A stretch of DNA of 46,817 bases from Nitrospirota bacterium (GCA_016208855.1 JACQXF010000079.1:1-46817), one strand, 5' to 3'. Counted from the first letter of the stretch, positions 1 to 29,188 are shown. Numbers and translations are program-made. The notes: a model not told the origin generated them from the sequence alone.

Positions 1-1
1 A

Positions 2-121
2 GGCGCCCAAACCTTATGGCTTGGATTGCAGAGATTGGATGATATAACTGAAATGTGGAAAGTTTTCATGTCCAAATCTGATCCATCCTCACTACGTTCA
101 CCCCCTGTATCCAGACCCTAA
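2..121 (+). mobile_element. 3' end of an IS4-family (IS50/Tn5-like) transposase, 5'-truncated by the window edge
   Basis: Frame 2 reads GAQTLWLGLQRLDDITEMWKVF...SRP*, resembling the G-x-x-T-L-W-x-G-L-x-R-L C-terminal motif of IS50-group transposases. Not in the ORF track. Confidence 0.7.
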
Positions 122-138
122 ATGTGGGTAAGGATAAG
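122..138. mobile_element. Putative right terminal inverted repeat of the IS (ATGTGGGTAAGGATAAG)
   Basis: Immediately follows the transposase stop and abuts half of a REP-like palindrome. The partner IR lies outside the window. Confidence 0.45.
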
Positions 139-166
139 TTTACTAAAGGGGGGCAGGGGGGGATTT
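139..166. repeat. Right half of a REP-like GC-rich hairpin (TTTACTAAAGGGGGGCAGGGGGGGATTT)
   Basis: Resembles the loop and right arm of the intact palindrome at 19392-19440 (TTTGCTAAAGGGAGGTCAGGGGAGATTT). Confidence 0.55.
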
Positions 167-347
167 GATGTCAACTTATTTAATGCCTTTACTATAAAAA
201 TTGATATTGAGAGAATAAGACAGGCAGAGTCATCTGAGCCTTTTTTCTCAATGCTTTTTTTGCTTTTTTTTGGTAAACTTTTCCTCAATGGAGAATAAAT
301 AAAGGGTTCCTAATTATTTCACGTATTACTTAGAGTGAGGGACTTAT

Positions 348-701
348 ATGTTAATGCAGTTAAAGCAGTTGATTATTGTTTTGATAGGGCTGGGCTTGAT
401 TTTAAGATTCCTTACCAGACAACAGGCTCTAAGAAAATTAGGAATGGTTTTATTAACGACTGCCTTCTTTCCTTTTATAGTCAGCTTCGGTCAAAACTTC
501 TATTATCAGTTGACTCCTATTCAAAAGGTTGGACTAATTGCATTTCTACTGCCTTTAACTGTTTTCATAATTTTAAGAATCTTATTAGGTAAGGATTTGT
601 TTAATAATATTGCTGGCAATTTTATTTATGATGGGCTGAAGGCTGTAATGATTTTTCCATTTAGGATTATTACAAGATTAATTCGCAGGTTAAATCATTA
701 G
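348..701 (+). CDS. Small multi-pass membrane protein, hypothetical
   Basis: 117 aa, about three hydrophobic segments. GAGGG upstream of the ATG. First gene of a co-directional cluster. Confidence 0.7.
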   Translation: MLMQLKQLIIVLIGLGLILRFLTRQQALRKLGMVLLTTAFFPFIVSFGQNFYYQLTPIQKVGLIAFLLPLTVFIILRILLGKDLFNNIAGNFIYDGLKAVMIFPFRIITRLIRRLNH

Positions 702-714
702 ATGTGGAGGGTTT

Positions 715-810
715 ATGGGCTTATTAAACTGGGTTTCTAACAAAGTGCTTCAAACGTCATATGATGCATATTTACAAAATCTTAAGCTCTATTATAGTTA
801 TCCATTATGA
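715..810 (+). CDS. Possible 31-aa small ORF (MGLLNWVSNKVLQTSYDAYLQNLKLYYSYPL), or the frameshifted N-terminus of the next gene
   Basis: GGAGG at 706-710 before ATG 715. Its TGA overlaps the ATG at 807 (ATGA). Confidence 0.4.
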   Translation: MGLLNWVSNKVLQTSYDAYLQNLKLYYSYPL

Positions 811-1886
811 GAAACGTAGTCAGACGGCTAATTAACCATTTGTTTTATCTTTCCTTCTGGCTTTTCCTCGGAGGTGCACTTTTAATCGGAGTGATATACC
901 TCTTATTCTCAAACGTTATAAACTTTTCAGATTCATGGAATGCCGTACATCCTTCATTGCCTGTTGTAAATGACGTTTTTTTTAAGGAAATAATTTCTAT
1001 TATTAGAAGTATTGAGATCAATTTGGGTTTGGGACGGCATATAAGCAATCTTTTAGGTAACTTTGATTACGGACATGGATATGCTATTGCCCAGTCAATC
1101 GGGACATTAATTATAGAAACAATAATGACATGGAGTCTCTGGTTATTTATACAAGCAAGGCATCGTGAGCAGGCAGCGACTGAACAAATATCTGCAATGA
1201 GGCAGAGCAGGCAATATGATGATGCAGACCTATTGAATATGGAAATGCAGAATCGTTTAAATAGCAGCGCGGAGAAGAGAAGGTTCCTGTCAATTTTCAT
1301 AATTTTTGGAAGCTTAACCGTATTAATCTGGTTCTTTGATTTTTACCTTACATACGCTAAGCAAGTTATTGTGAGTAAGGACGCTGAACGTTTTGCTTTA
1401 CTCGGCCCTTTTGGAACAGTTTTGCTTATGACCATAATAAGCGTAGGCTTTGCCTTTATAACAGAGGAATTGAGACGTGAGATATTACAGGTGGTTGGAG
1501 ACCTTTCCGAACTTATACTTGGTCCATCGCAAGAACAGCGAGCATTGCCGACAGAACAGACTAAGAAGATAGAGCCAGGGAATGTCCCCACAGAAGGCCC
1601 TCCTCCCCCTCCTCTGGATGACGAAATGGTTACAATTCATAGCATAGAAGGTATATTGTACACGCTGCTTATAGAAATCAATGCTCAATGGCAAAGGGGA
1701 GAGATAAGTATTGATGGGCAGGTTTATGCTGGTGATGGACGGTTATTGACAGTAACAGAATTATTTCAGGTAATGAACCCACCAGAGGGGATGCCTGTTC
1801 AATGCTACTATACTGAAGACGGAATTAATAGTCTTGATAACACCACATATTATATGGATGAAAACAGGGTTGTCATTTTCAATTAG
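807..1886 (+). CDS. Multi-pass membrane protein with Pro-rich linker and acidic C-terminal soluble domain, hypothetical
   Basis: 359 aa, about four hydrophobic segments, helical QARHREQAATEQ region, PPPPP linker. Confidence 0.75.
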   Translation: MRNVVRRLINHLFYLSFWLFLGGALLIGVIYLLFSNVINFSDSWNAVHPSLPVVNDVFFKEIISIIRSIEINLGLGRHISNLLGNFDYGHGYAIAQSIGTLIIETIMTWSLWLFIQARHREQAATEQISAMRQSRQYDDADLLNMEMQNRLNSSAEKRRFLSIFIIFGSLTVLIWFFDFYLTYAKQVIVSKDAERFALLGPFGTVLLMTIISVGFAFITEELRREILQVVGDLSELILGPSQEQRALPTEQTKKIEPGNVPTEGPPPPPLDDEMVTIHSIEGILYTLLIEINAQWQRGEISIDGQVYAGDGRLLTVTELFQVMNPPEGMPVQCYYTEDGINSLDNTTYYMDENRVVIFN

Positions 1887-1900
1887 GGAGATATTTAGAT

Positions 1901-3025
1901 ATGACAATAAAGCTGAATAAGTTTAAGTTAACGAACTTAGTATGTTGCCTGCTGTTTATCATATCATTGTTTTCTGTAAGAGCGGCTATCGCTGCAAGCC
2001 CTGTAATCTCAGAACGTTATATTATAATATTTGATTTATCAGGCACATTTATTAAAGATAACACAAATATCAGAATGTCTCTGGATAAACTGCAGCGATT
2101 CAGCGAGGCATTGGAACAGGCAAAAAAAGATGAAATTGCACAGATTGAAAAAGAGGCAAAAGGGCGAAGACAGCCGTTATTTGAAAATACTAAGCGCGTT
2201 TCAGAATTGACAATTATAGGCATGGGATTACGATCACGCCCTATATGGAGTGGAAGCGCTGCTAATTTTATGGATTTAAATAACAATGGAGAAATAAGAC
2301 GTCTTATCCAGAATACCGTTGATGAGTCTGCAAGGACAGGCAATAATAAATGTACTGATATACGAGGGGCATTGGATCTGGGGTTTAGAAGATTAAAAGC
2401 TACAAATACTGACAGAGAATTAATTGTACGCGCTGGGATTATTGTATTTTCTGATTTACTTGATGACCCGCCGGACCAGTCAGGAAATTGTAAAAATACT
2501 GGCAGCCCTGTTCCGCCTGAGGGCGCAATATGGGATGATTTAACCTCTTTTATAGAAGAAAATCAGGACAGGTTTAACACAACGCCTGCATTTCTACCAA
2601 AATTTACATTTATCGCACTTGGCGTAAACGAACAGCCTGACAGGACGGTTGATCCTGTAAGTCTTTGGACGGAACGCCTCCGCTCCATTGAGGATAAGCA
2701 TGAGCCGTTCTTGTTAGAATTTAGGTCATTTGCAGATGCCATAAATTTCTCTATACTTCCGCCCGAAAGAAGCTCCTTGTCAGACATACAAAACTATCTC
2801 AATAATTTCGATCCACTTGAGGGGAAACGAATAGCTAATGATTCTTCAAGAGGTAATCAAAATAACTCCGGCATGCTAAAGACAGGACTGGTCCTAATCC
2901 TTGGAATAGCTGGGCTTATCTTCCTGATTATTTTGCTAATAGTAGTTGTAATCATAGTCATAATAGTAATGAAAAAAAGGCGCGCCTCAAGGGCAGGCGC
3001 TAATCCAAACAGAGGAGACACATAA
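1901..3025 (+). CDS. Exported, membrane-anchored vWA-like domain protein
   Basis: N-terminal signal-like segment. MIDAS-like elements IIIFDLSGT, TDIRGAL, IIVFSD. Long C-terminal TM followed by KKRR. Confidence 0.7.
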   Translation: MTIKLNKFKLTNLVCCLLFIISLFSVRAAIAASPVISERYIIIFDLSGTFIKDNTNIRMSLDKLQRFSEALEQAKKDEIAQIEKEAKGRRQPLFENTKRVSELTIIGMGLRSRPIWSGSAANFMDLNNNGEIRRLIQNTVDESARTGNNKCTDIRGALDLGFRRLKATNTDRELIVRAGIIVFSDLLDDPPDQSGNCKNTGSPVPPEGAIWDDLTSFIEENQDRFNTTPAFLPKFTFIALGVNEQPDRTVDPVSLWTERLRSIEDKHEPFLLEFRSFADAINFSILPPERSSLSDIQNYLNNFDPLEGKRIANDSSRGNQNNSGMLKTGLVLILGIAGLIFLIILLIVVVIIVIIVMKKRRASRAGANPNRGDT

Positions 3026-3026
3026 G

Positions 3027-4646
3027 ATGGGAGATTTTCTTGAGAAGATAAAGCGGGCATGGACTACGTCAAGTCTTTATAAGAGAAGGGTGTCTATACT
3101 TCTTCTCAGTCATGACAGGAATTATACATTGGAGAGGATATGTCAGAATCCTAAGGAAGGGGTTCTGAAGGATGCGCCTTTTTACCATTTATCGGCTGAC
3201 GGCAAGAAAAAACTGAAGGATAAAGGGAGCTACCTTGCTCAAATTCCAGTAAATGTTAATGAAGAGGTGTTTGCTGAAAACGAGTCTATACTGAAGAAGC
3301 TCTGTGATGATACAAAAGAAGCCGGAATCTATATTATTGATGATTTCCTGAAACAACTTGATGACAGAGACGCAGCAGCTATAGGCCATCAGATTTGGAT
3401 AAATCGTCAGCTCTTTTTTGATCTCTTTGAGAAGACTCTTAGCACTGATTGTGATGCTCAGGTATTTATATTTCTTGAACACTCAGAAAAGAGGGAGCTA
3501 ATCCCTGATATTGTTGATGCAGAGATTCAGATTATTGAACATCCATATCCGATATATGATGAGGTCAAGGATATTGTAGCTAAGGAACTAATTAATTATA
3601 AGGCAAGGGCAACAGTTAAAATTGACAAGGAAGATGAATTTATTACCGCTTTGTCCAGACACTTCTCTGGATTTGCCTACTCAACCATATCATGGATGCT
3701 AAGAGACTCACTGATAACTCATGTAACGAACAATAAAATTGATACAAAGACTGCTAAAGGCATAATTAACGAAGTAGCAAATAGAAAAGAAGAGCTTATT
3801 AACAAGCAGCTTGGGATGAACATTCTTAAAAGTACAACTTATAAACCAATAGGCGTTGATACGTTCCTTTCATATATAGAAAAGAGGAAAGACAGGATAT
3901 GTATTCCCGGTCAGGAGCGACTTAAAGGGGTTCTTCTTATCGGACCGCCTGGCACGGGGAAGTCCATGCTTGCAAAATATCTCTCTGCTCATCTGGATAA
4001 GCCTGCTGTAGAGGTGCAGCTTTCAAGCCTGATGAGTAAATGGATGGGAGAGACCGAGCAGCTATTCCAGCGTCTTACTAATGTCTTGGACGCCATGGCG
4101 CCTGTGATAATTTATATGGACGAAATTGAGAAGATGTTCTCTGACGAAGGGGTTGGTTCAAGCGCCGGCGCCTCTATGGTTAGGGCAACAGGAAGTCTTT
4201 TGACATGGATGAATGACACAAACTCCCCAGTTTTTATAGTAGCGACAGCAAATAATATATCAAGAATGGGCGAAATAGGTCTCACCATGACAAGAAGGGG
4301 ACGTTTTGACGCCCTGTTTTATATCGGTTATCCTGATGAGAATGGACGAAAAGAGCTTTTTAAATTCTATGCGAAAAATAAAAAATTCAATTTAACGGAC
4401 GCGCAGTATATAACCCTTGCTAAAATGGCGCCGTTCTTTACAGGAGCTGATATCTCTGGTGTTGTACAGGAAGCGAGTACAGAATGCATTGGAGTTACTA
4501 ATCCAGATTGCTATCAAAACCTTGTAAATGCAATTAACCTGCAGAAAGCCCGTGTAGAAGCTATGCGCGCAATGTACAATGCAAATACCGGCGGGGTAAT
4601 GAAGAGGCTGGCAATTCCTGCGGGAAATTTTGAAAATGAGAGTTAG
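3027..4646 (+). CDS. AAA+ ATPase, Ycf46-like architecture (degenerate N-terminal domain plus active AAA domain)
   Basis: Walker A GPPGTGKS, pore loop SKWMGE, Walker B IIYMDEIEK, VATAN, arginine finger RRGRFD, lid FTGADI. Confidence 0.85.
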   Translation: MGDFLEKIKRAWTTSSLYKRRVSILLLSHDRNYTLERICQNPKEGVLKDAPFYHLSADGKKKLKDKGSYLAQIPVNVNEEVFAENESILKKLCDDTKEAGIYIIDDFLKQLDDRDAAAIGHQIWINRQLFFDLFEKTLSTDCDAQVFIFLEHSEKRELIPDIVDAEIQIIEHPYPIYDEVKDIVAKELINYKARATVKIDKEDEFITALSRHFSGFAYSTISWMLRDSLITHVTNNKIDTKTAKGIINEVANRKEELINKQLGMNILKSTTYKPIGVDTFLSYIEKRKDRICIPGQERLKGVLLIGPPGTGKSMLAKYLSAHLDKPAVEVQLSSLMSKWMGETEQLFQRLTNVLDAMAPVIIYMDEIEKMFSDEGVGSSAGASMVRATGSLLTWMNDTNSPVFIVATANNISRMGEIGLTMTRRGRFDALFYIGYPDENGRKELFKFYAKNKKFNLTDAQYITLAKMAPFFTGADISGVVQEASTECIGVTNPDCYQNLVNAINLQKARVEAMRAMYNANTGGVMKRLAIPAGNFENES

Positions 4647-4677
4647 CGCCAAATAGATTAGGACAACTTTATAGATT

Positions 4678-5040
4678 ATGAATACATGGTATATTCTTCC
4701 AGAATATGTAAACTTAAGACAATTAGGGCATATAATTCCCAGAGATATTGGAATAGTCTCCAGATATAAATACAACAACGTAAACATAATAAGCATAAAT
4801 CTGCTGCATCTTCATTTATTTTTTACAATTATAGAGAGAAACAAAGAGAAACTAATCAATGGATTATATAAGTTAAAACCGATAGGGGAATTTACATCGC
4901 CGCACTTTATGGAAATTTACTGGAGATGCTTTTTTAAGTATTTTCTTGGCAAAAACGGCTATCATTTGGTAAAAAGCAGGGCATGTAATAAACATGGAGG
5001 GGGATTTCTTATGGTATTTGAAAGGAGGACTCAAATATGA
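4678..5040 (+). CDS. Hypothetical protein
   Basis: 120-aa ORF whose stop overlaps the next start (ATGA). No motif recognised. Confidence 0.5.
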   Translation: MNTWYILPEYVNLRQLGHIIPRDIGIVSRYKYNNVNIISINLLHLHLFFTIIERNKEKLINGLYKLKPIGEFTSPHFMEIYWRCFFKYFLGKNGYHLVKSRACNKHGGGFLMVFERRTQI

Positions 5041-5852
5041 GCGGAAGTAAATGCAGTCCACCTGTAGAAGTAGGAGGGGGAGCAGGCGGATCCATTGTTG
5101 CAATACCGTTGGTGTTGGCAGGACTTGCTGCTGTTGGTATTGCGAAGGGGATACAAAAGGGTTATAAGACTGTAAAAAAAATTAGGGCTGAAACATCAAA
5201 GAGTGAGATGAATGCTTGGCTTGCTGATATGAAAATGCCAATGTCATTGGGCGAAAAATTAAAACTCCCTCCAAAGATGAGCGTAGAGGGAATAAATAAA
5301 GATGCTGAAATATTTAGCACAGAGATTAACGGTGTAAGGCTTGATAATGTATTCATACAGTTACAAAAAATGGCTAATACGAGTAAAAAAAGCGGTATAT
5401 GGGTTAATGACTATACAATGGAGAATATCAATAGGGTTGTTGTTATGGGGATGGATAATTCAGACAACAGGATTGCCTTTACAAAAGACCAAGATGGTAA
5501 ATACCAAGCATTTGGTGCCGTTAACTCTAAGGAAGCCCTCTCAAAAAATATAAACAATATTATGTGCACGTTCTATAAGAACTCGCTCTATTATCAGCTT
5601 CATGAGTGGGGGTTGAAAAATGTGCAAATGAAAGCTAATGCTAATTCATATAACTTAATGGCAGATAACAGCGGCATGAGTGTAAAAATTAACAAACAGA
5701 ATGGCCAGATTCATTTTGAGAACATTCCTGAAAATCTTCAGGCTAAGGTTGAAAAATGGCTTAAGACTTTTACCGGAGAATGCAGGGTTACCCAATCTCC
5801 GTTGAAGAGTGCAAAGACAGGAAGAAAACAACGAGGCGCTGTATCTGCATGA
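5037..5852 (+). CDS. Hypothetical protein with Gly-rich/hydrophobic N-terminus
   Basis: 271 aa, AGGAGG RBS, GGGAGG then IVAIPLVLAGLAAVGIA. Confidence 0.75.
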   Translation: MSGSKCSPPVEVGGGAGGSIVAIPLVLAGLAAVGIAKGIQKGYKTVKKIRAETSKSEMNAWLADMKMPMSLGEKLKLPPKMSVEGINKDAEIFSTEINGVRLDNVFIQLQKMANTSKKSGIWVNDYTMENINRVVVMGMDNSDNRIAFTKDQDGKYQAFGAVNSKEALSKNINNIMCTFYKNSLYYQLHEWGLKNVQMKANANSYNLMADNSGMSVKINKQNGQIHFENIPENLQAKVEKWLKTFTGECRVTQSPLKSAKTGRKQRGAVSA

Positions 5853-6766
5853 GGCGTATTAAGGTTTTATTATCTGATGACGGCAGATTCTATTTAGATG
5901 ATATTGATGCGGAGCTATATAAAAGACTGCTAAAGGCAGGGGCGTCTTTTGAGGAGGATATAAATATACCAACACTAAATTGTTTTTCAGGGAAAAACTT
6001 AAAAAGAAGGCTAAAAGATGCTGCATGGTGGAATGAATATCTTGACTATGCGATCAAGTGGGCAGAGGATTCTTATAATAACTGCTCCCTTTGTCATCTT
6101 AAGTGCGGCAAAAATCGTTTCTTACAGACAGGACAATGTAATGCATCGCTTGAAGGGGAATTTTTTGACCTTTTTGTGCATCCAGAAATGAACGGATTAA
6201 AGGATGTGCTTCACATTATGATGAAGGGGTGCTCTTTAGATTGTTTTTTCTGCCATAAGGATCAGGAGAGGGATAGAGAATCCGGACTTCATATGCCCAC
6301 TGTAAGACATAAAGAGGTTGTAGCAATAATTAAAAAAGGTAATTTCAACTCAGCGGCATTTTCAGGGGGGAATCCTGACGAAAACATACTCTCTATATTG
6401 AGGCTGCTAAAAGAGGTCGGGCCATTTAAATGGCCTATCATTTGGGAGACACATGGCTGTATAGATACAAGTGTGTTTTCAATGCTTTTGCCGATAGTAG
6501 ATCTTTTTCTTGTCACTGTAAAGTTCGGAAGTGATGAATGCGCCTGTAAATATGGCGGAGTGGCTCACTATAGGGATTGTGTTTCCAAGACGTTGCTCTT
6601 TCTAAAGAGTAAGAAGGCAGACTTCTTTCTTCGTATTTCAAGAATTCCAGAGCATGAGGAGTGCTGCTACTTGAAGGCAAAAGAAATGATTGATAAACTT
6701 GGTATCAGAGATTACAGTATTATTAATATTTATCCTGAGTTTAATTTGTCTTATCGAGAAGTATAA
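5849..6766 (+). CDS. Radical SAM protein, PflX-like
   Basis: CxxxCxxC (GCSLDCFFC), N-terminal CSLCHLKC...GQC cluster, FSGGNP, WETHG. Start placed at ATG 5849, which overlaps the upstream TGA (ORF track uses 5780). Confidence 0.8.
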   Translation: MRRIKVLLSDDGRFYLDDIDAELYKRLLKAGASFEEDINIPTLNCFSGKNLKRRLKDAAWWNEYLDYAIKWAEDSYNNCSLCHLKCGKNRFLQTGQCNASLEGEFFDLFVHPEMNGLKDVLHIMMKGCSLDCFFCHKDQERDRESGLHMPTVRHKEVVAIIKKGNFNSAAFSGGNPDENILSILRLLKEVGPFKWPIIWETHGCIDTSVFSMLLPIVDLFLVTVKFGSDECACKYGGVAHYRDCVSKTLLFLKSKKADFFLRISRIPEHEECCYLKAKEMIDKLGIRDYSIINIYPEFNLSYREV

Positions 6767-6913
6767 GAATTATTTAAAGGGTATATGTTGTCGCAGCCAG
6801 CAAAAAAGGAAGTAAAACATTTTTTTCTATACAGAATTTCTGGCTAAGATATTTTAAGGAATGTGGAGCAAGTTTTGAGAAAGAAAATTATGGAAGCGCT
6901 TTAATACGGTTCG

Positions 6914-7336
6914 ATGAATAATGGAAATGAGACAATTGTTTATCAAGAACGGCCTTCGTGGTTATATTATTATTTGTTGTATATCCTGGGGATTATTTTA
7001 TTCGCTGTTTCAGCAAATATAGGAAGACTTGACGGAGGTTTTTTTGTTTTACTTATTGTTGTAGGCTTGGCGGCTGTATTCAGGTTCAGATATTTGTTTA
7101 CTATTACAAATGACAGAATTATCATGAGAGAAGGATTGATTGCAAGAAATACAAATGAAATGAAGGTAAGGCATATAAGAAGTATGCACGTTAAACAAAA
7201 TCCTATTGAAAGAATACTTGGAATTGGGACACTGACTGTTATATCAGCAGCAGATGGTGAAGCAGCAGTGGTTTTCAAAGGGATAAACGATCCTCAAATG
7301 GTGAAAGAAACCATTTACAAAATGATAGACCGATAA
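6914..7336 (+). CDS. Membrane-flanked bacterial PH domain protein (bPH_2/DUF304-like)
   Basis: RPSW start, two TMs, then FTITNDRIIMREGLI...VKQNPIERILGIGTL. Confidence 0.8.
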   Translation: MNNGNETIVYQERPSWLYYYLLYILGIILFAVSANIGRLDGGFFVLLIVVGLAAVFRFRYLFTITNDRIIMREGLIARNTNEMKVRHIRSMHVKQNPIERILGIGTLTVISAADGEAAVVFKGINDPQMVKETIYKMIDR

Positions 7337-7338
7337 TA

Positions 7339-7710
7339 ATGGGAAAAATTGCAGAATATAGAAAATACTGGCAGATAAAGGAGGCTGAGGAAGCAGCAGC
7401 CGGAGAAGTCCTCCGTACAAAAGCCTTTAACACAGCAAAACTATTAACAGATATTCTTGTAAAAGAATTCGGGGTAAAACGAGTGATACTGTTTGGTTCT
7501 GCCCTTCAAAAGCACGGATTTGATCGTGACTCGGATATAGACCTGGCTGTAGAAGGACTTGAAAAAAGATTTTATTTCAGGGCCCTCGCACGGCTTATGA
7601 TGGAGAGTCCCTTTGAAGTGGATCTGAAACCTATAGAAAGTGTAAAAACATTACTTAAAGACAGGATAAAGAAGGGAGTTGTTTTGTATGAGAAAAGAAA
7701 TGCTTCCTGA
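7339..7710 (+). CDS. Minimal nucleotidyltransferase (MNT) antitoxin
   Basis: LFGS...DSDIDLAVEG motif. Confidence 0.85.
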   Translation: MGKIAEYRKYWQIKEAEEAAAGEVLRTKAFNTAKLLTDILVKEFGVKRVILFGSALQKHGFDRDSDIDLAVEGLEKRFYFRALARLMMESPFEVDLKPIESVKTLLKDRIKKGVVLYEKRNAS

Positions 7711-8173
7711 TCTTATTGCAGAACTACAAGATGAGCTTGAGCTTTTAGGGCATCTTGCAGCAGATATTGAAGATGTGAACAAATGCAAACCTAAATCTCA
7801 GAGGGCTAAAGCTGTTTATGAAGAAAGCCTTGCGCTTAAATTACACAATTTTTATACAGGATGTGAACGGATATTCCAGAAGATTGCCGACGACATTAAT
7901 GGCGGGGTACCAAGCTCTTTTGATTGGCATAAAAGGCTCCTGAAGAGCATGTCGCTCGAAATAGAAAATATAAGACCTGCTGTAATCTCGAAATCCACCC
8001 TCCGAATGCTTGAAGATTTTCTGGCATTCAGACACGTTATACGAAACATTTATGGGTTTGAGATAGATACTGAACGCCTGCAAGCGCTCATCAATAATAT
8101 GCAAGGGGCGTATCTGATGTTTAAAAAAGACATTGATAAATTTATTGTTTTCTTAAGAAAGATGATGGGGTGA
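7688..8173 (+). CDS. HEPN toxin (HepT/DUF86-like RNase)
   Basis: LHNFYTGCERIF, WHKRLL, FRHVIRNIY. Overlaps the MNT gene. Start moved to ATG 7688 after AAGGGAG. Confidence 0.8.
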   Translation: MRKEMLPDLIAELQDELELLGHLAADIEDVNKCKPKSQRAKAVYEESLALKLHNFYTGCERIFQKIADDINGGVPSSFDWHKRLLKSMSLEIENIRPAVISKSTLRMLEDFLAFRHVIRNIYGFEIDTERLQALINNMQGAYLMFKKDIDKFIVFLRKMMG

Positions 8174-8211
8174 AGTGGATATTGAATTAATTGGATGTAT
8201 GGAGAAATGGG

Positions 8212-10704
8212 ATGTCGCATAACAATTACATCTTTTCCCTCGGCGGATATGACGTTGAGATGGTTGAAATCAAGAATATCCTTGAATCAAAAGGGCTGAG
8301 ATTTTACGACAAAAATCTCTCATGGAGTAATGCTTCTTTATCTGCATACAAAGATGAGATTGGCAAAATCCCCTCTGATGCGATTCCGATTTTTATTGAA
8401 CTCAAGCTTGATTGTCCTTATCCTGAGAGGTCGATAATTATTGACCACCATGATGAAAAAGCGGGTAAGCGCCAAAAAACATCCATTGAACAGGTAGCCG
8501 AGTTACTCAAAATAGAATTAAACAGGAAGCAGCAGCTAATCAGTGCCAATGACAGAGGACACATCAGAGCAATGAAAAAAATGTGCGCTACTGATGTGGA
8601 AATAGCTGAAATCAGGGCATTGGACAGAAAGGCTCAAGGCGTTACAGATCAAGATGAGAAGTTTGCAGAGGAGTCAATTAAAAAGTGTCTTGAAGAGGTA
8701 GCCGATAACGCTGTAATAGTGAACAGTTCAACCAACAAAACATCTGCTGTTTTCGACCGCCTGTACGATAAATACAAACACATCTTTATTTTTACCCTTG
8801 ATGGTGAGATGAATTATTCGGGAACTGGAGAGGTTGTTAATCGGTTAGCTGATGAGTATAAAAAAAAGCAGGAGAAAGACACCTCAATAGAATTCTGGTT
8901 CGGCGGGAATCTGCCTGATTACGGTTTTTTTGGAACAAAGACGCATCTTGGTAAAGAGGAGATAAAAGAGATGGTCAAAATTAATGACAAAAAGATCATC
9001 TCCCAGCATATCTTCATGTTCCCGTTCAGGATAACCCCTAAAACCATAAATGGGAACTCATCTCCCGTCATTCCAGCTTGTCTGGAATCTTTCTCTAAAA
9101 ATAAAAAGAAGAAATCGTCTGCTGATGTAAATATGTGCGAGGTTATTCAATCAGTTGAAGCTGGAGGATGGCATTATAAGCCATACACAGTAGACACCGC
9201 TGCACATTACAGCGAGTATTACTATTTCTATGAATATGTTCAAAAGGCGATATTTGACCAAAGAGATATTGATGAAATTAAAGATTTTTTTAAGCAAGAT
9301 AAAAATCCAGACGTCATCTCGTATTACTTTGAACGCCCTGTAGCTAATGATTCTATAATGAGGATTCACATTAAAAGAGATGATAATGGGAAGCAGATAT
9401 GCTTTCATTATGATTTAACAATCCAACATATTTCATTAAGGCTTTTCTCTACAGACATCGGTATACTTACAATTGAACTCTATAATCACGAACATCCATC
9501 ATTTCAAGACGTTCTCTATATTAATGAATACGGCAGGAGGATTTATCCTCAATTCCTTCCTGATGATCGTGATATAAATATAGTTAAGGATAGCTTTCTT
9601 GCTGACGAAATAGTGTTTAAACTTGGTGAGATTGATTCTGTTGAGGATTTTTGCCCACCTAAAAAATACTTAGAAGGGAAATCTGAAAGGAAATTGGTTG
9701 TAGCAGACTATATCACAAAACTACTGGGTGATAACTTCACAACAAGATATAACTTTATCCCTATTATTGATGATAGGATGTTTAATGTATGCTGGTATGC
9801 TAATGCTGAACTTATTAAGGAATTGCAAAGGGAAGAATGCTTTACTGGCAAATATAAATATGAAACCTCTGATGAATGGTATAGCCTTGTCTTTATAGAT
9901 AACTCTGTCAAGAGTGTTTCAGCAGGCGGCAGGATGAAGCAGGACTTGATAAAACAGTTTACATATTCCAGATGGATTCACAAAGGAACTCTTTTCGGCA
10001 TCACACGCTACAGCTTGATGTGTTTAACCAACTCTACATTTGATTTTTTACGACATCACATGGAAAGGATATATTACCAGATGGCGATAATCCTCCTTGC
10101 TCAGAGGGCATCAATACTGAAATTTTCTGATGATGTCTCAGAAATCAGCGGCAAAATAGAGGGCATGAAAGGCAAGGATAAACAAAAAGAGGTTGAAAAG
10201 ATTGCAGATGATGTCAGAAAACTCCACTCTTCTTTTATCCGCTTTGTAAACAGACTATGGTTTACTGAGGTAACCCCGCAAGAGCAGGGGATTGAGATGT
10301 ATAATATGGCTGTTAAGAATATGGGGTTAAAAGAGCAATTGGATGAACTCCGGCATGAGATAAAGGAGTTGTATGAATTTGTAGATATGCAGTATGAGAA
10401 GATAAAGGCAGAGGATGACAGAAGAATAAACAAGACACTTTCAAGATTGAATTGGCTCGTTGTTATCTTTCTGCCAATAACGATTGTTTCGGGTTTACTT
10501 GGGATGAATATTTACACAACAAATGAAATCCCGGATATTATAAGCGTTCTTAATGAATTTTTTAATGTAGATATACATTATCAGAGGCTTTTTATTTTGA
10601 TTGCCCCCACACTACTTATCTATTTGCTCATTTTTGCTTGGTTCTTATGTCAAAAAATATATATTAAAATCAAAGAAAGGGTAACTGCTGTAAAATTAAA
10701 CTAA
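8212..10704 (+). CDS. CRISPR-associated NrN (DHH-family phosphodiesterase)-CorA-family membrane effector fusion
   Basis: N-terminal LGGYDVEM...IIIDHHD...SIEQVA...ISANDRGHI (NrN-like). Then HIFMFPF, EVTPQEQGIEMY and C-terminal TM-GMN-TM (FLPITIVSGLLGMN), as in CRISPR-linked CorA. Start placed at ATG 8212 after GGAG. Confidence 0.8.
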   Translation: MSHNNYIFSLGGYDVEMVEIKNILESKGLRFYDKNLSWSNASLSAYKDEIGKIPSDAIPIFIELKLDCPYPERSIIIDHHDEKAGKRQKTSIEQVAELLKIELNRKQQLISANDRGHIRAMKKMCATDVEIAEIRALDRKAQGVTDQDEKFAEESIKKCLEEVADNAVIVNSSTNKTSAVFDRLYDKYKHIFIFTLDGEMNYSGTGEVVNRLADEYKKKQEKDTSIEFWFGGNLPDYGFFGTKTHLGKEEIKEMVKINDKKIISQHIFMFPFRITPKTINGNSSPVIPACLESFSKNKKKKSSADVNMCEVIQSVEAGGWHYKPYTVDTAAHYSEYYYFYEYVQKAIFDQRDIDEIKDFFKQDKNPDVISYYFERPVANDSIMRIHIKRDDNGKQICFHYDLTIQHISLRLFSTDIGILTIELYNHEHPSFQDVLYINEYGRRIYPQFLPDDRDINIVKDSFLADEIVFKLGEIDSVEDFCPPKKYLEGKSERKLVVADYITKLLGDNFTTRYNFIPIIDDRMFNVCWYANAELIKELQREECFTGKYKYETSDEWYSLVFIDNSVKSVSAGGRMKQDLIKQFTYSRWIHKGTLFGITRYSLMCLTNSTFDFLRHHMERIYYQMAIILLAQRASILKFSDDVSEISGKIEGMKGKDKQKEVEKIADDVRKLHSSFIRFVNRLWFTEVTPQEQGIEMYNMAVKNMGLKEQLDELRHEIKELYEFVDMQYEKIKAEDDRRINKTLSRLNWLVVIFLPITIVSGLLGMNIYTTNEIPDIISVLNEFFNVDIHYQRLFILIAPTLLIYLLIFAWFLCQKIYIKIKERVTAVKLN

Positions 10705-11093
10705 TGGATATTCAAAGAGTCAAAAATTACTGGGTAGTAGAGGCAGAAGATGCCCTGCGAGTGATGCATCATTTATACGAGAAGGATGACTACTCGTATG
10801 CCCTGTTTTTTGGTCATCTTGCGATAGAAAAAATCCTGAAAGCCCTTTATGTTATTCGGAACAAGGAACATGCTCCTTACAGCCATAATCTTGAACGCTT
10901 GGCTGCGCTTTCCGGCATTGAATTAACTGACGATATAAGCAGCCAGCTTGAGAAAATTTCCCGTTATAATATTGAATCCAGATATCCTGATGATAAGCGA
11001 GAATTCAGAAAGCTATGTACAGAGGAGTTTACCAAAAATGAACTATCACAAATAGAGGAGATTTTTAAATGGCTAAGGTCAATGCTGATGTAA
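10704..11093 (+). CDS. HEPN domain protein
   Basis: AEDALR...YALFFGHLAIEKILKAL...HNL...SRYP. Start overlaps the corA stop. Confidence 0.85.
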   Translation: MDIQRVKNYWVVEAEDALRVMHHLYEKDDYSYALFFGHLAIEKILKALYVIRNKEHAPYSHNLERLAALSGIELTDDISSQLEKISRYNIESRYPDDKREFRKLCTEEFTKNELSQIEEIFKWLRSMLM

Positions 11094-11407
11094 TGGATAA
11101 GGCGCGTCAATTTCTTCTTGTGCTGAAAGAGCAGGGCATTAATATTATAGCAGCCTATCTTTTTGGCTCTTATGCGAAAGGAAATCCCCATAAATGGAGC
11201 GATATTGATATAGCTGTAGTGTCGCCTGATTTTTCATTAAGCAGATTTGAGAACAGCCTGTTTCTTATGAAGATTGCATCAAAAATTGATGTGTCTATTG
11301 AGCCGGTTGCATATAATCCTGAATCTTTCATTGACGAAGACCCGCTTGTATGGGAGATAAAAAAATCAGGCATACCATTGGAGATTAAACATGGAATTAA
11401 TCGTTAA
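11069..11407 (+). CDS. Minimal nucleotidyltransferase (MNT)
   Basis: YLFGSYAKG...WSDIDIAVVS. Confidence 0.85.
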   Translation: MAKVNADVMDKARQFLLVLKEQGINIIAAYLFGSYAKGNPHKWSDIDIAVVSPDFSLSRFENSLFLMKIASKIDVSIEPVAYNPESFIDEDPLVWEIKKSGIPLEIKHGINR

Positions 11408-18610: not shown

Positions 18611-18958
18611 ATGGATATAAAGGTGACAGATAAGATAATAGAGGACTTTCTGAGGATAATTGCGCCATTGCAGGAAGATATTGAGCAGATGTATCTCTTC
18701 GGCTCACGATGCCGTGAGAACTGGCGTCCGGATTCGGATTATGATATTTTAGTTGTCCTCAAGGACAAAAACAGAACCCTTGTGAATAAGCTCTATGACG
18801 CAGTGATGGATATATTGCTTAGCGAGGGCAGACTTATATCGCTTAAGATATTTACAAATTCGGAATTCAATCGTCTGAAGTCAATCCAGACGCCGTTCAT
18901 GAAAAATATTTTAAAGGAGGGGATAAAGATTGGACCCTGTAACGAAGTCTCTCATTGA
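18611..18958 (+). CDS. Minimal nucleotidyltransferase (MNT)
   Basis: YLFGSRCR...DSDYDILVV. Confidence 0.85.
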   Translation: MDIKVTDKIIEDFLRIIAPLQEDIEQMYLFGSRCRENWRPDSDYDILVVLKDKNRTLVNKLYDAVMDILLSEGRLISLKIFTNSEFNRLKSIQTPFMKNILKEGIKIGPCNEVSH

Positions 18959-19328
18959 TGGATATATGCAGAAGGCTCAAAATAAATTGGAAGTGGCTGA
19001 ACGGCTTTTCAAATCAGGAGATTATGAGGATGCGGTTTCAAGGGCTTATTATGCAGTCTTCCATGCAACTCAGGCTCTGCTTTTAACTGAAGGACAACAT
19101 GCAGAAACCCATAAAGGCATTGTTTCGCTCTTCGGACTCCTCTTTGTGAAGACAGGAAAATTTGACAGAAACCTTGGGAAATATCTTGCAAATCTAAAGG
19201 ATGACAGAGAAAGCGGTGATTATGAAGTCTTTTCGTATATTGATAAAGAAACTGCTGAGACAGCCTTACATGAGGCAAAGGAATTTTTAAAAGAAGCAAA
19301 AATCTATCTGGACAAGTTAGGGGGATAA
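18930..19328 (+). CDS. HEPN domain protein
   Basis: AVSRAYYAVFHA...TH.G...RESGDY. Overlaps the MNT gene. Confidence 0.85.
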   Translation: MDPVTKSLIDGYMQKAQNKLEVAERLFKSGDYEDAVSRAYYAVFHATQALLLTEGQHAETHKGIVSLFGLLFVKTGKFDRNLGKYLANLKDDRESGDYEVFSYIDKETAETALHEAKEFLKEAKIYLDKLGG

Positions 19329-20419: not shown

Positions 20420-22564
20420 GTGGATATGGGTCTCTTTGAAGAAATATGTTCTTTTAATACTCTCCTCTTGGCCTTTGACAGGGTTGAAGAAAACGGGGGC
20501 TCTCCCGGAATTGATAATGTAACCATTGAGGAATTCTCCATTGATCTTAAAACCCGACTTCTTGAATTAAGGAAACAACTGCTTGATGGAACATACTCTT
20601 CGTCTCCATTGCGCAAAGTGGGCATTCAAAAACCTGATGGTAAAATCAGATGGCTTTCTATCCCAACGGTTAAAGACAGAACCATACAGACATCAGCCGC
20701 AATGATCCTTTCCCCGATTCTTGATGCCGAGTTTGAAGAATGCAGTTTTGCTTACAGAAAAAACAAGTCTGTACAGAAGGCGGTGCACAAGGTTATTGAC
20801 CTCAGAGATAAAGGCTATACATGGGTAGTTGACGCCGATATTCGTTCATTCTTTGATGAAATCAATCACGCCCTCCTCATAGAAGAAATCAGGAAATATA
20901 TAAAAGAAGACAGGGTTATAGAGTTGATAAAAAAGTGGCTTGATGCAGATGTTGTTTATAAAGGCGAAAAAACAAGGTTAACAAAAGGCCTACCGCAGGG
21001 TTCTCCGATATCCCCTCTGCTTTCCAACCTTTACCTCGACTCTTTTGATGAGGCATTGATGGAGGAAAAATTCAGGCATGTCCGTTTTGCCGATGATTTT
21101 GTAATACTCTGCAAGGACAAACCTGATGCAGAGGATGCGCTCGAACTTACAGAGGATGTGCTCAAAAAGCTAAAACTGCAACTGAACGCGGAAGAGACGC
21201 GTATTGTTCATTTCAATCAGGGCTTCAGATACCTCGGCATGGACTTTTTAAGGTCTATGGTATATCGTCCTATTTATGAAGATAAATCAGATTCAGAACA
21301 GGAAACAGCCCTCAATGACGTCTCAAATGACAAGGAAAGATTGCGCAGAACAAAGCCTGAAATAACCTCTAAACCTGCTGATACCGTCCGGAAGAAAAAG
21401 CGCCATATGAATAATGCTGAACAAACAACATCCGAATTGCCTGATACCGTTATGGCAATGGCATTAAAAAAAGCGATGGAAGGAGCCGAAAGAGAGGATT
21501 TTGATTTTCTCCTTGAAGAAAAGATTGAGATAGAACCTACGGCGTATAGTGATCCCTTTTTACGAACACTTTATCTCCTTGAGCAGGGTGCGGTTTTGAG
21601 GAAAGAAGATGAAAGATTTGTAATCACGAAGGATGACAGAGCAATAAAAGAAATCCCGCTTATAAAGGTTGACCAGATACTCATATTCGGCAATATTCAG
21701 ATTACAACCCAGGCAATGAAATTTTGCCTGGAAGAAGACGTCCCGATTATTCTCCTGTCAAGCAGCGGGAAATATTTCGGCACAGTAGAGTCTTTTAAGA
21801 GCGTAACAATTGCCCTGCATAAAAAACAGTTTGAAAGGAATGACGACAGAAAATTTGCCTTGAATATTGGCAGGACTATAGTAAGAGCAAAAATCAATAA
21901 CTCAAAGGTCCTGATCCAGCGATATGCAAGGAAGAGAAAAAGTCTCAATCTTGAATCAGAGATCCATGCTATCAATCTCTTGGTTGACAGGCTGCCTTCT
22001 ATAAGCAACCACGAAGAATTAATGGGGATTGAAGGCGCTGCCTCTTCAAGATATTTTTCAGCGTTCAGGGCTTTAATTGGCGAGGAATGGGATTTTACGA
22101 AGAGGAAGAAAAACCCGCCTCCCGATCCGGTTAACAGCCTGCTGAGTTATGGATATACACTCCTTTTTTACAACGTCTATGCGATGATAAGAATGCACGG
22201 ACTTCATCCTTATGTAGGCTTGCTGCATAGCATAAGGGAAGGACATCCAGCCCTCGTTTCCGACATGATGGAAGAGTTCAGGGCGCCTATTGTGGATGCG
22301 GTCGTTATAAATCTGATTACAAGGCGGAGTCTTAAAAAAGAGGATTTTATAATTCCGGAGGATGAACGTTCCTTATGCCTTTTAAGAGATAACACGAGAA
22401 AGATATTTATAAAGGCCTTTGAAGGGAAGATGAACAGTTCTATAGCTCATGAAGCAACAGGGTATCAAGTGGATTACAGAAGGTGCATAGACCTGCAGGT
22501 GCAGGCCATGAGAAAGGTAATTGATGGGAAACTGTCGGAATATAAGCCTATGATGATTAAATAA
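20420..22564 (+). CDS. cas1: Reverse transcriptase-Cas1 fusion
   Basis: RT motifs PGID, IPTVKDR, DIRSFFD, GLPQGSPISPLLSNLYL, RFADD. Charged linker. Cas1 motifs GIEG...YF, DPVNSLLSYGY, GLLH, SDMMEEFR. GTG start at 20420 or ATG at 20426. Confidence 0.92.
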   Translation: MDMGLFEEICSFNTLLLAFDRVEENGGSPGIDNVTIEEFSIDLKTRLLELRKQLLDGTYSSSPLRKVGIQKPDGKIRWLSIPTVKDRTIQTSAAMILSPILDAEFEECSFAYRKNKSVQKAVHKVIDLRDKGYTWVVDADIRSFFDEINHALLIEEIRKYIKEDRVIELIKKWLDADVVYKGEKTRLTKGLPQGSPISPLLSNLYLDSFDEALMEEKFRHVRFADDFVILCKDKPDAEDALELTEDVLKKLKLQLNAEETRIVHFNQGFRYLGMDFLRSMVYRPIYEDKSDSEQETALNDVSNDKERLRRTKPEITSKPADTVRKKKRHMNNAEQTTSELPDTVMAMALKKAMEGAEREDFDFLLEEKIEIEPTAYSDPFLRTLYLLEQGAVLRKEDERFVITKDDRAIKEIPLIKVDQILIFGNIQITTQAMKFCLEEDVPIILLSSSGKYFGTVESFKSVTIALHKKQFERNDDRKFALNIGRTIVRAKINNSKVLIQRYARKRKSLNLESEIHAINLLVDRLPSISNHEELMGIEGAASSRYFSAFRALIGEEWDFTKRKKNPPPDPVNSLLSYGYTLLFYNVYAMIRMHGLHPYVGLLHSIREGHPALVSDMMEEFRAPIVDAVVINLITRRSLKKEDFIIPEDERSLCLLRDNTRKIFIKAFEGKMNSSIAHEATGYQVDYRRCIDLQVQAMRKVIDGKLSEYKPMMIK

Positions 22565-24121: not shown

Positions 24122-25105
24122 ATGAGATAGAGCCGATAATAAGAGGCAACTGAAACACCGCGTGCGTCACTGCAATTAACTGAAATTCATGAGATAGAGC
24201 CGATAATAAGAGGCAACTGAAACATCTGAGCAATCAATTGATATCGCACCGCTAGTGTATGAGATAGAGCCGATAATAAGAGGCAACTGAAACCAACCGC
24301 GTGCGTCACTGCAATCAACTGAAATTCCATGAGATAGAGCCGATAAAAAGAGGCAACTGAAACCTCCCGGCTCAGTTATAACTAATGAGGTGCTATAAAA
24401 TGAGATAGAGCCGATAATAAGAGGCAACTGAAACCTGCCATTGTACTTATTAGCCCCCCTGCGGAGATAAAATGAGATAGAGCCGATAATAAGAGGCAAC
24501 TGAAACTAACAACTACAACTGTAATTACTACAAGCAATCCTGTATGAGATAGAGCCGATAATAAGAGGCAACTGAAACAAACAAACGCTCTGCGTCTCCT
24601 CTACCAGTATCATAAAATGAGATAGAGCCGATAATAAGAGGCAACTGAAACTCCTTTCTTTGTGTACCTCCCATTCGGGATCCTTTATGAGATAGAGCCG
24701 ATAATAAGAGGCAACTGAAACGTCTGAAGACTCCGCAAATATCGCACTTTTCTAATGAGATAGAGCCGATAATAAGAGGCAACTGAAACCTTCGGATCGA
24801 GCGGAACGGAAGGATCGAGCGTAAACATGAGATAGAGCCGATAATAAGAGGCAACTGAAACGCAAAATGTCGCAGGTGGTAAAGTAGATGGCAAAAATGA
24901 AATGAGATAGAGCCGATAATAAGAGGCAACTGAAACGTCCTTGGGACTGTACGAATTCCACACTTTCGCGTATATATGAGATAGAGCCGATAATAAGAGG
25001 CAACTGAAACTTTTAATAAGAGGCAACTGAAACCAAACAACCGCGGTTGTAAAATTACGATTGTTTCAAAATGAGATAGAGCCGATAATAAGAGGCAACT
25101 GAAAC
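24122..25105 (+). CRISPR. CRISPR array: 14 full 35-nt repeats (ATGAGATAGAGCCGATAATAAGAGGCAACTGAAAC), one 20-nt partial repeat, 13 spacers of 32-40 nt
   Basis: Repeats start at 24122, 24189, 24259, 24329 (one substitution), 24400, 24472, 24544, 24617, 24687, 24755, 24827, 24902, 24976 and 25071. Partial repeat at 25014-25033. The ACTGAAAC 3' end and leader position suggest + strand transcription. Confidence 0.97.
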
Positions 25106-29103: not shown

Positions 29104-29188
29104 TGGTGCCGAAGGCGGGACTCGAACCCGCATGGATTTCTCCACACGCCCCTCAAACGTGCGTGTCTACCAGTTCCACCACTTCGGC
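29104..29188 (-). tRNA. tRNA-Leu(GAG)
   Basis: GCCGAAGTGGTGGAACTGGTAGACACGCACGTTTGAGGGGCGTGTGGAGAAATCCATGCGGGTTCGAGTCCCGCCTTCGGCACCA: cloverleaf, long variable arm, GAG anticodon, encoded CCA. Confidence 0.95.

Follow-up and report, generated by a model that had tools for sequence, protein, structure and literature searches.

The window analysed here is the whole of a 46,817-bp contig (C33) of a Nitrospirota bacterium (GCA_016208855.1, JACQXF010000079.1), whose genome (G000) comprises 2.44 Mb in 147 contigs. The subject of this work is the run of co-directional genes at positions 348–7336, which lies directly upstream of a type III CRISPR-Cas locus and whose open reading frames (ORFs), all on the + strand, are labelled o1 to o8. 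The greater part of this run corresponds to a module that is rare, recurring and so far undescribed, and whose usual gene order is a transmembrane (TM) protein of ~350–385 aa, a vWA protein, an AAA+ ATPase, a protein of the o6 family, a radical SAM enzyme and a small protein with 3–4 TM segments. We read 348–6766 as one divergent copy of this six-gene module, self-contained, horizontally scattered and not an accessory of type III CRISPR-Cas; taken jointly with the mechanism and role proposed below, this reading appears to us quite possible, although it falls somewhat short of probable. With TM segments called from hydropathy, the segment contains the following features.

348–701, + strand: o1, 117 aa, a small protein with three TM segments, the small-TM component of the module, placed first here rather than after the radical SAM gene.
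715–810, + strand: a candidate micro-ORF of 31 aa and uncertain status, provided with a GGAGG Shine-Dalgarno site and overlapping o2 by ATGA.
807–1886, + strand: o2, 359 aa, with four TM segments and a Pro-rich linker that precedes a soluble domain at the C-terminus.
1901–3025, + strand: o3, 374 aa, with a signal-like N-terminus, a vWA domain with intact metal ion-dependent adhesion site (MIDAS), a C-terminal TM anchor and a basic tail.
3027–4646, + strand: o4, 539 aa, with a degenerate N-terminal AAA-like domain (~1–260) and an active classical AAA domain (~296–490).
4647–5036: an AT-rich spacer, with the doubtful o5 inside it and the Shine-Dalgarno site of o6 at its end.
4678–5040, + strand: o5, a doubtful ORF of 120 aa.
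5037–5852, + strand: o6, 271 aa, with a single TM segment, occupying the slot of a DUF2997-family protein elsewhere.
5849–6766, + strand: o7, 305 aa, a radical SAM enzyme with N-terminal CxxCxxxC...C, CxxxCxxC and C-terminal HxxCC motifs; an alternative start lies at 5780.
6914–7336, + strand: o8, 140 aa, a bPH_2 membrane protein with two TM segments (21–39 and 43–61) and a PH domain.

An initial annotation of this DNA had counted eight or nine co-directional genes; their positions and strand hold, but o5 is probably no gene, and seven are credible, all of them intact ORFs with Shine-Dalgarno sites or translational coupling. Successive genes are separated by 105 nt (o1/o2), 14 nt (o2/o3), 1 nt (o3/o4), 390 nt (o4 to o6), −4 nt (o6/o7) and 147 nt (o7/o8). 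The o5 sequence has a GC content of 0.317 and a first-codon-position GC (GC1) of 0.339, without the rise in GC1 of coding sequence, and it has no family match in scans of the Pfam, NCBIfam and PADLOC models and no counterpart in any related locus. The spacer stretch occurs once in the genome and belongs to no Rfam family, and among related loci the equivalent gap ranges from −11 to 21 nt in four cases and measures 190 nt in a fifth. Because the stretch is AT-rich without coding bias, has no relatives and ends in the strong Shine-Dalgarno site of o6, we read o5 as probably non-coding. Pfam matches within the segment are confined to o4, o7 and o8, with none for o1, o2, o3, o5 and o6. Relationships to the other loci were assessed with leave-out hidden Markov models (HMMs), which were built from those loci without window sequences and run against the 241 ORFs of the window.

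Recurrence of the gene set was examined in 390 genomes of the window's class and in a 401-genome sample of the phylum to which a metagenome-assembled Syntrophaceae genome belongs. Full-length matches to the AAA profile A1 (E ≤ 1e-90) were present in six of the class genomes (G000 itself, G587, G434, G334, G538 and G513) and in two genomes of the other phylum (G892 and G913), where a third, weaker match, in G1050, lies without module genes. When each component is counted only in loci whose DNA reaches far enough, an o6-family gene and a radical SAM gene follow the AAA gene in 7/7 other loci (the latter being cut by the contig end in G587), a vWA gene precedes it in all six loci with upstream DNA, a large (~360-aa) TM protein gene precedes the vWA gene in 5/5, and a small TM protein gene follows the radical SAM gene in all five loci with downstream DNA. 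Neighbouring genes in these loci mostly lie −74 to 21 nt apart. When the search was turned round and started from the radical SAM profile, it returned full-length module-type proteins (E ≤ 1e-113) in five of the 390 class genomes (G000, G334, G434, G513 and G538), every one of which also carries the AAA family. The module is thus a conserved operon, and its products must act together. By the terms of the initial annotation, its reading would fall if homologues of these proteins never co-occurred elsewhere, or if they mapped to an ordinary plasmid/ICE backbone or a known pathway unconnected with defence. Neither outcome was seen: AAA, radical SAM, vWA and membrane protein genes stand together in 7/7 other genomes, and no plasmid or phage record holds the AAA or the radical SAM gene at ≥80% coverage when the AAA sequences of the window and G913 and the radical SAM sequence of G913 are used as tblastn queries.

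Metagenomic data extend this picture. The AAA family of the module is a distinct family of ~520-aa proteins, with 35 further metagenomic rows at 27–64% identity over most of the length, and the radical SAM family numbers 133 proteins at E ≤ 1e-20 in the metagenome collection. For 12 of the 36 AAA-family rows there is a radical SAM row whose longest contig has the identical size (8224, 51511, 23377, 23054, 17126, 9358, 83375, 6019, 28978, 21696, 33576 and 29774). A sister lineage of the window copy is found on one 8224-bp contig, with AAA P0002 (64% identity) and radical SAM P0123 (49%). Names among the relatives include Nitrospinota, Poribacteria, Desulfobacca and 'Proteobacteria'. A scan of genome contigs with generic AAA motif patterns from the AAA alignment gave 79 loci matching residues ~254–513 only and without module genes by tblastn, and a scan of metagenome contigs with the AAA protein gave six loci, none with a radical SAM or N-domain match; the 8224-bp P0002 contig was not among them. 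A scan with the radical SAM alignment found no viral contig encoding a relative. Signs of decay of the module were seen in two class genomes: G290 (L138, C95) has only a truncated, split radical SAM gene without partners, and in G513 (L131, C126) the AAA gene is split into two ORFs and the radical SAM gene contains an in-frame TGA.

The product of o4 is a classical AAA+ protein, as the initial annotation had proposed, and matches PF00004 with an E value of 4.6e-25 (89 bits against a cut-off of 21.2). The Walker A residues G306–K312, the Walker B residues D365 and E366, the sensor-1 residue N409 and the arginine fingers R423 and R426 are invariant or nearly so across 34 family members. In front of this domain lies a second, degenerate AAA-like domain: the AlphaFold2 (AF2) model of o4 (predicted local distance difference test score, pLDDT, 81; predicted template modelling score, pTM, 0.79) has a second alpha/beta-plus-lid domain at ~1–260, residues 1–290 contain no P-loop (no GxxxxGK motif), and a T-x-RD-R motif in the N-domain is kept within the family. 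With this model as query, the best Foldseek matches were tandem AAA proteins over ~580–600 columns, and VIA-align placed model residues 2–530 onto the D1–D2 domains of Drg1, p97 and Pex1/6 with Z scores of ~20 over 465–482 residues. The match to Drg1 (7nku_A) had a Z score of 20.6 with 477 aligned residues and an rmsd of 8.2, and that to Pex1/6 (8u0v_A) a Z score of 19.8 with 482 aligned residues and an rmsd of 5.3; the high rmsd of these tandem alignments reflects domain placement. The single-domain proteins fidgetin-like 1, Vps4, spastin and PAN tie with the tandem matches at Z ~20–21 in VIA-align. Judged from the predicted structure, o4 is a tandem (type II-like) AAA+ protein with an inactive D1 and an active D2.

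The Ycf46 label attached to o4 in the initial annotation is presumptive. No Ycf46 model matched o4 in the Pfam and NCBIfam libraries scanned, and cyanobacterial matches covered residues 286–484 only, at 32–33% identity, no better than other AAA proteins. Outside the module, 25 class genomes contain, at E below 1e-45, an AAA protein of ~500 aa that matches only the C-terminal two-thirds of the profile. These proteins were considered as module relatives and set aside, their neighbours being heterogeneous and mostly housekeeping genes. At one of these loci (L107, G453:C156) the start of the ~500-aa AAA gene is overlapped by a gene for a 221-aa Fer4_12 radical SAM protein, with an integrase fragment nearby, and at L111 (G316:C80) a DUF1257 gene lies just upstream of a wider-family AAA gene.

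The o3 protein gave no direct Pfam vWA match of its own, and its orthologues match VWA (PF00092) or VWA_2 (PF13519). The leave-out HMM of six vWA orthologues identifies it at an E value of 3.8e-10, and the MIDAS positions D45, S47, T152 and D185 are invariant in an alignment of five sequences, so that o3 carries the DxSxS...T...D signature and is assigned to the vWA fold on this sequence pattern. Hydrophobic segments lie at residues 13–31 (signal-like) and 331–349 (C-terminal TM). A signal-like N-terminus together with a C-terminal TM segment is found in the vWA proteins of the window, G434, G892 and G913, and the G334-type vWA has a lipobox-like LTAC instead; since every form carries one or the other, the vWA domain is predicted to lie outside the cytoplasm in all of them. 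This agrees with the initial annotation, which had described an exported, membrane-anchored vWA protein separated from the AAA by the membrane.

The start of o7 at position 5849 is that of its homologues and overlaps the stop codon of o6 (ATGA). The initial call of a radical SAM enzyme is borne out: Fer4_12 matches o7 with 30.6 bits against a cut-off of 22, Radical_SAM gives 27.1 bits, just below its cut-off of 29.5, and the CxxxCxxC residues C128, C132 and C135 are invariant. Residues C79, C82, C86, R90 and C97 and, near the C-terminus, H269, C272 and C273 are also kept, and the leave-out HMM recognises o7 with an E value of 4.9e-38. The closest relative in the PDB by sequence is PflA (8fo0; E 4.6e-6). 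The description of o7 as PflX-like fits in name, in that many relatives are listed by the Joint Genome Institute (JGI) as 'putative pyruvate formate lyase activating enzyme', which we take to be the pflX label, but o7 falls outside TIGR04337 and outside the curated glycyl-radical activase models, the best of which gave 36.8, 35.9 and 34.9 bits against cut-offs of 425, 174 and 131; TIGR02493 gave 26 bits against 232. No glycyl-radical enzyme gene is present in any module locus, and o7 is not an activase by these measures. The AmmeMemoRadiSam family (TIGR04337, cut-off 220 bits) was considered and rejected, with no match at C33:5849-6766 at E ≤ 0.001. Elsewhere in G000 this model matches a gene on C30 with 348 bits and genes on C142 and C23 weakly; the one on C142 (G000:C142:7814-8710) encodes a radical SAM paralogue of ~308 aa. 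This gene is the G000 copy of a widespread paralogue type of ~310 aa, which occurs in 250 of the 390 class genomes and has the N-terminal Cys motif region in common with the module type; a 365-aa radical SAM subfamily in one bacterial family stands alone.

Between the AAA and radical SAM genes, the module loci encode a protein of the family to which o6 corresponds in position. This family has 188 representatives at E ≤ 0.001 among 1.84 billion proteins. PF11211 (DUF2997) matches the slot protein of G434, G587, G913 and G892 with E values of 5.4e-7 to 9.6e-4. Among 82 aligned family proteins a near-invariant Asp is kept in 78 and a near-invariant Cys in 80, and 45 have an N-terminal hydrophobic segment. 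The window protein resembles the G334- and G892-type proteins in its position, an N-terminal MS..S/VP motif and one TM segment, and the G334 type also in a C-terminal stretch. PF11211 gave no match to o6 at E values up to 1, so the window protein is not a DUF2997 (D...GxxC motif) member by that model. The AF2 model of o6, built with 82 sequences, has a pLDDT of 59, and its best VIA-align score over 48,161 chains was a Z of 6.7, within noise. ESM Atlas searches with o6 and o2 returned nothing usable, and PDB profile searches with o6, the vWA protein and the ~360-aa TM protein (TM360) returned nothing at E ≤ 0.05.

The initial annotation had also named two membrane proteins, and o1 and o2 indeed contain three and four hydrophobic segments, respectively. 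The leave-out HMM of five small-TM orthologues detects o1 with an E value of 1.4e-6, the next window ORF scoring 0.2, and a C-terminal PFR..L.R motif is common to o1 and these orthologues. The larger protein, o2, resembles the TM360 proteins in size, topology, position, Pro-rich linker and the C-terminal motifs VYAGDG... and YYMDENR. In G334 a 42-aa hydrophobic micro-ORF occupies the position of the 31-aa micro-ORF of the window, to which it is unrelated. The last gene of the segment, o8, is a bPH_2 gene as first described (PF03703, E 1.4e-17; 64.1 bits against a cut-off of 22), with a TM hairpin preceding the domain. Its counterpart was found in 0/7 other loci, and o8 is local cargo outside the conserved module. 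The window copy thus diverges from the others in having the small TM gene first, o2 and o6 as positional equivalents only and a bPH_2 gene added.

Downstream, o8 ends at 7336 and the MNT gene starts at 7339, 2 nt past that end, which is the close junction with the MNT-HEPN pair that had been noted at the outset. The remaining features of the window, from the contig start to the end of the island, are listed below.

1–160: an IS/MITE-like (insertion sequence or miniature inverted-repeat transposable element) repeat of ~150 nt, 97–100% identical at the ends of contigs C114, C62, C5 and C141.
7339–8173: an MNT/HepT pair, the first of three MNT/HEPN pairs downstream.
8191–10704: an NrN(DHH)-CorA fusion.
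10704–11407: a HEPN/MNT pair, followed by cas10 and RAMP genes.
18611–19328: an MNT/HEPN pair, followed by cas6.
20420–22564: a reverse transcriptase (RT)-Cas1 fusion, followed by two cas2 genes and then a PIN gene.
24122–24506: a short CRISPR array.
25402–27870, + strand: a HerA/T4CP-like ATPase of 822 aa with weak mad8, HerA and TraD similarity.
Between 28031 and the tRNA: an Imm70-like gene and a CYTH gene (class IV adenylate cyclase-like).
29107–29188, − strand: a tRNA, marking the island end, with housekeeping genes beyond.

Because the repeat probably broke the assembly, DNA upstream of the module is unseen in the window. G334 likewise has a CYTH orthologue close to its module (L091:1296-1856).

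This arrangement invites the explanation, close to that of the initial annotation, that the segment is an accessory or regulator of the adjacent type III locus (of the NrN-CorA, SAM-AMP type), co-transcribed with it and having its S-adenosylmethionine (SAM) chemistry in common. The 2 nt between the last gene and MNT, and a junction without a + strand terminator-like site, would fit such a link, as would the use of SAM by the radical SAM enzyme and the membrane location of the CorA effector. We nevertheless consider it very improbable. The fetched flanks of the other module loci contain cas genes in 0/7 cases, so that linkage to cas10 or type III genes amounts to one locus in eight, the window itself, and the suggested connection with a SAM-using type III locus is not supported; moreover, the abutting bPH_2 gene is not a module gene. 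An orthologue of the HerA/T4CP-like ATPase closely follows the module in two other genomes, G538 (46% identity over 440 aa) and G913 (30% over 779 aa), and in the window the CRISPR-Cas block separates this ATPase gene from the module, which suggests a cassette between unrelated or pre-existing island genes. The HerA/T4CP-like gene is present in 22 of the 390 class genomes; searches of five other module genomes did not find it, and it was on that ground rejected as a core component. Since the module travels independently of CRISPR, with no cas genes in the DNA fetched for the seven other loci, the CRISPR neighbour is probably a coincidence of a shared genomic island, which extends from the IS-like repeat to the tRNA and also contains toxin-antitoxin pairs.

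The flanks of the other loci differ from one locus to the next. Those of G334 contain a ClpP-like gene, response regulators and LPP20/CsgG-like lipoproteins, and those of G913 a weak PARP-like match, PP2C and LPP20. Upstream of the module in G434 lies an RtcR-like regulator (L128:4165-5706) with a CARF-like N-domain, a sigma-54 AAA domain and HTH_8; it is set apart from the module by a hairpin and by a small g113-like gene that is conserved in G334 and G913 as well. A sigma-54 promoter resembling TGGCAC-N5-TTGCW was found neither in window positions 1–8300 nor upstream of the module in five loci. In G538 the module is accompanied by two interleaved PDC-S01/DUF4143 ATPases, a helix-turn-helix gene and a methyltransferase, and in G892 by sigma-factor and transposase-HTH genes.

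Among published systems, the closest analogue is the group of FtsH-type MoxR-vWA ternary systems. As set out by Kaur, Burroughs, Iyer and Aravind (2020, eLife; PMC7159879), these contain a tandem FtsH-type AAA protein with an inactive N-terminal domain and a divergent vWA protein, and one subtype has a 'distinctive' stand-alone radical SAM enzyme, whose proposed substrate is a protein or peptide encoded by a separate gene. The likeness to that description lies in a vWA protein combined with a classical-clade AAA protein whose N-terminal AAA domain is inactive and whose C-terminal one is active. The differences are several. No MoxR gene is present among the genes scanned in the eight module loci, which sets the module apart from the ternary class. 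The module vWA is exported with intact MIDAS, whereas theirs is a cytoplasmic protein extended by an alpha-helical or beta-propeller part. The module core further includes polytopic membrane proteins and a DUF2997-family protein, and NEFF1, Ubl and caspase components were not seen in the module loci; the likeness to their FtsH-type AAA is one of described architecture. The MoxR/vWA pairs NorQ-NorD, CbbQ-CbbO, CoxD-CoxE and RavA-ViaA resemble the module in having an AAA+ protein beside a MIDAS-vWA, in a likely ATP-driven remodelling activity and in the vWA as adaptor, but the ATPase of the module is classical and tandem, its partners are predicted to be on opposite membrane sides, and it has the additional radical SAM, DUF2997 and membrane parts. 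The Ycf46-type single-AAA proteins and the cyanobacterial and plastid DUF1257 (Ycf35)/DUF2997 pair offer a further parallel, the former in their ~500 aa, N-terminal extension and C-terminal classical AAA domain, the latter in that the o6 family carries DUF2997 and DUF1257 lies beside a wider-family AAA gene at L111. With the PflX-like proteins and activases (PflA, NrdG) the radical SAM enzyme has in common CxxxCxxC in a Fer4_12/Radical_SAM core, but it is far below their cut-offs, has its own N-terminal domain and a C-terminal HxxCC, and lacks a glycyl-radical enzyme nearby. Membership in IetAS was ruled out: the AAA domain of o4 scores 78.5 bits with the PADLOC IetA model and 64.3 bits with the NCBIfam IteA model (cut-off 510), a generic AAA match weaker than that to PAN/CDC48, and the window module contains no IetS-like protease. 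No description of this gene combination was found in the literature, searched exclusive of the supplements of PMC7159879, in line with the initial remark that the set is not a named system; the recurring set itself is real.

Such parallels raise the prospect of a non-conflict machine for assembly or maturation, in which an AAA+/vWA chaperone pair and a radical SAM maturase would equip an envelope or redox protein with a cofactor or modification. AAA+/vWA pairs are classic chaperones of metal-centre and complex assembly, a matter of established knowledge that PMC7159879 also discusses; according to PMC4284462, cyanobacterial gene clusters bring DUF2997 together with DUF1257/ycf35 and the ferredoxin gene fed7; the closest common paralogue of the radical SAM enzyme is the widespread type of 250/390 class genomes, and in G334 and G913 the genes behind the module encode LPP20/CsgG-like lipoproteins. 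On the other hand, the known pairs join a MoxR-clade ATPase to a cytoplasmic vWA, unlike the classical-clade ATPase and exported vWA found here, no candidate client enzyme is conserved beside the module, and a frequency of ~1% of genomes speaks against a core metabolic role. We regard an assembly machine as an unlikely account.

The mechanism that we propose starts from the membrane. The membrane proteins and the anchored or lipidated vWA would form an envelope-spanning platform, in which the periplasmic MIDAS site would bind an acidic peptide ligand. A cytoplasmic AAA+ ring may use ATP to remodel or unfold this platform or a client of it. The radical SAM enzyme, translationally coupled to the DUF2997-family gene, would covalently modify the product of that gene using SAM and its auxiliary Cys site; the near-invariant Asp/Cys motif is the most plausible target, another module protein being the alternative. 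The role of the module would most likely be accessory and inducible, either in envelope stress or in conflict between genomes, a plausible assignment that we favour because of the patchy, cross-phylum distribution and the island-like flanks. The binding steps, the radical SAM substrate and the biological role are what we infer from these features. A more specific form of the proposal is a trans-envelope system of a new class, in which the exported MIDAS-vWA receptor senses a cue in the periplasm or outside the cell, for example a phage protein or damage to the envelope, and through its dedicated membrane partners controls the dead-D1/live-D2 AAA+ protein and the radical SAM enzyme that modifies the DUF2997-family protein, so as to trigger an inducible defence or envelope-stress response with chemistry unseen in known immune systems; this form is put forward tentatively and is on balance doubtful.

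Distribution and surroundings also bear on a narrower possibility, namely an anti-phage system of the abortive-infection type, in which the periplasmic vWA would sense an incoming phage component, the AAA+ protein would act as the switch and the membrane proteins or the radical SAM product would be the effector that halts either cell or phage. The module is patchy, occurs in ~1% of genomes and spans phyla; its neighbours are island-like (CRISPR-Cas and MNT/HEPN in the window, PDC-S01/DUF4143 in G538 and HerA/T4CP-like genes with weak mad8/HerA similarity in three loci); and its architecture resembles in theme the conflict systems of Kaur et al. 2020. Against this, the core proteins contain no recognisable effector domain (nuclease or NADase), no viral contig has a radical SAM relative and no phage record the window AAA at ≥80% coverage, two loci are beside lipoprotein genes, and the sample comprises only eight loci. 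An abortive-infection system is possible in our view, but improbable.

Several observations weigh against our overall reading of the segment as a copy of a self-contained module with the mechanism and role just described. The 67-sequence HMM of the o6 family gives o6 an E value of only 2.4 (hhalign probability 0.7%), and o6 is gapped at both the D and the C columns, i.e. it lacks the D...C motif; o2 is likewise not matched by the leave-out HMM of TM360 (hhalign probability 0.4%). On sequence comparison o6 appears to be a divergent or replaced copy and a positional equivalent only, and o2 a positional, not a statistically homologous, equivalent of the ~360-aa TM protein. The pore loop of the AAA family, NSLLG in the family consensus and KWMG in o4, is non-aromatic in most relatives, and for this reason substrate threading is not assured. 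Three of the seven comparison loci lie on contigs shorter than 6 kb, and their context is therefore barely known. The flanks vary by locus and, although often island-like, include ordinary lipoprotein genes in G334 and G913, and the PADLOC models match no core protein beyond generic AAA similarity, which also counts against an anti-phage assignment.

Because homology of o2 and o6 is lacking and the D...C motif is missing, the radical SAM step on a DUF2997 protein may not apply to the window copy, or the copy may be in decay. The latter thought leads to the view that the window holds a decaying remnant that is no functional unit in G000. It draws on the same two deficits, on the 390-nt AT-rich gap inside the operon, on the displaced small TM gene and on the decay seen in G290 and G513. 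The seven ORFs are intact and furnished with translation signals, however, a second lineage keeps the same subtype (P0002 and P0123 on the 8224-bp contig), and the catalytic motifs of the AAA and radical SAM proteins and the MIDAS are intact, all of which makes a remnant highly unlikely.

Assembly systems and conflict systems are repeatedly found to be driven by AAA+/vWA pairs. The pairs described so far are cytoplasmic and employ MoxR, whereas here the vWA is predicted outside the membrane and the ATPase inside. For annotation the locus carries a caution, in that genes beside a CRISPR locus are not automatically its accessories, and the neighbourhood within this island is not conserved. The function of the module, once established, would assign two orphan families, DUF2997 and the large PflX-like kind of radical SAM enzyme, and the module would show a MIDAS receptor signalling across the membrane to an unfoldase.

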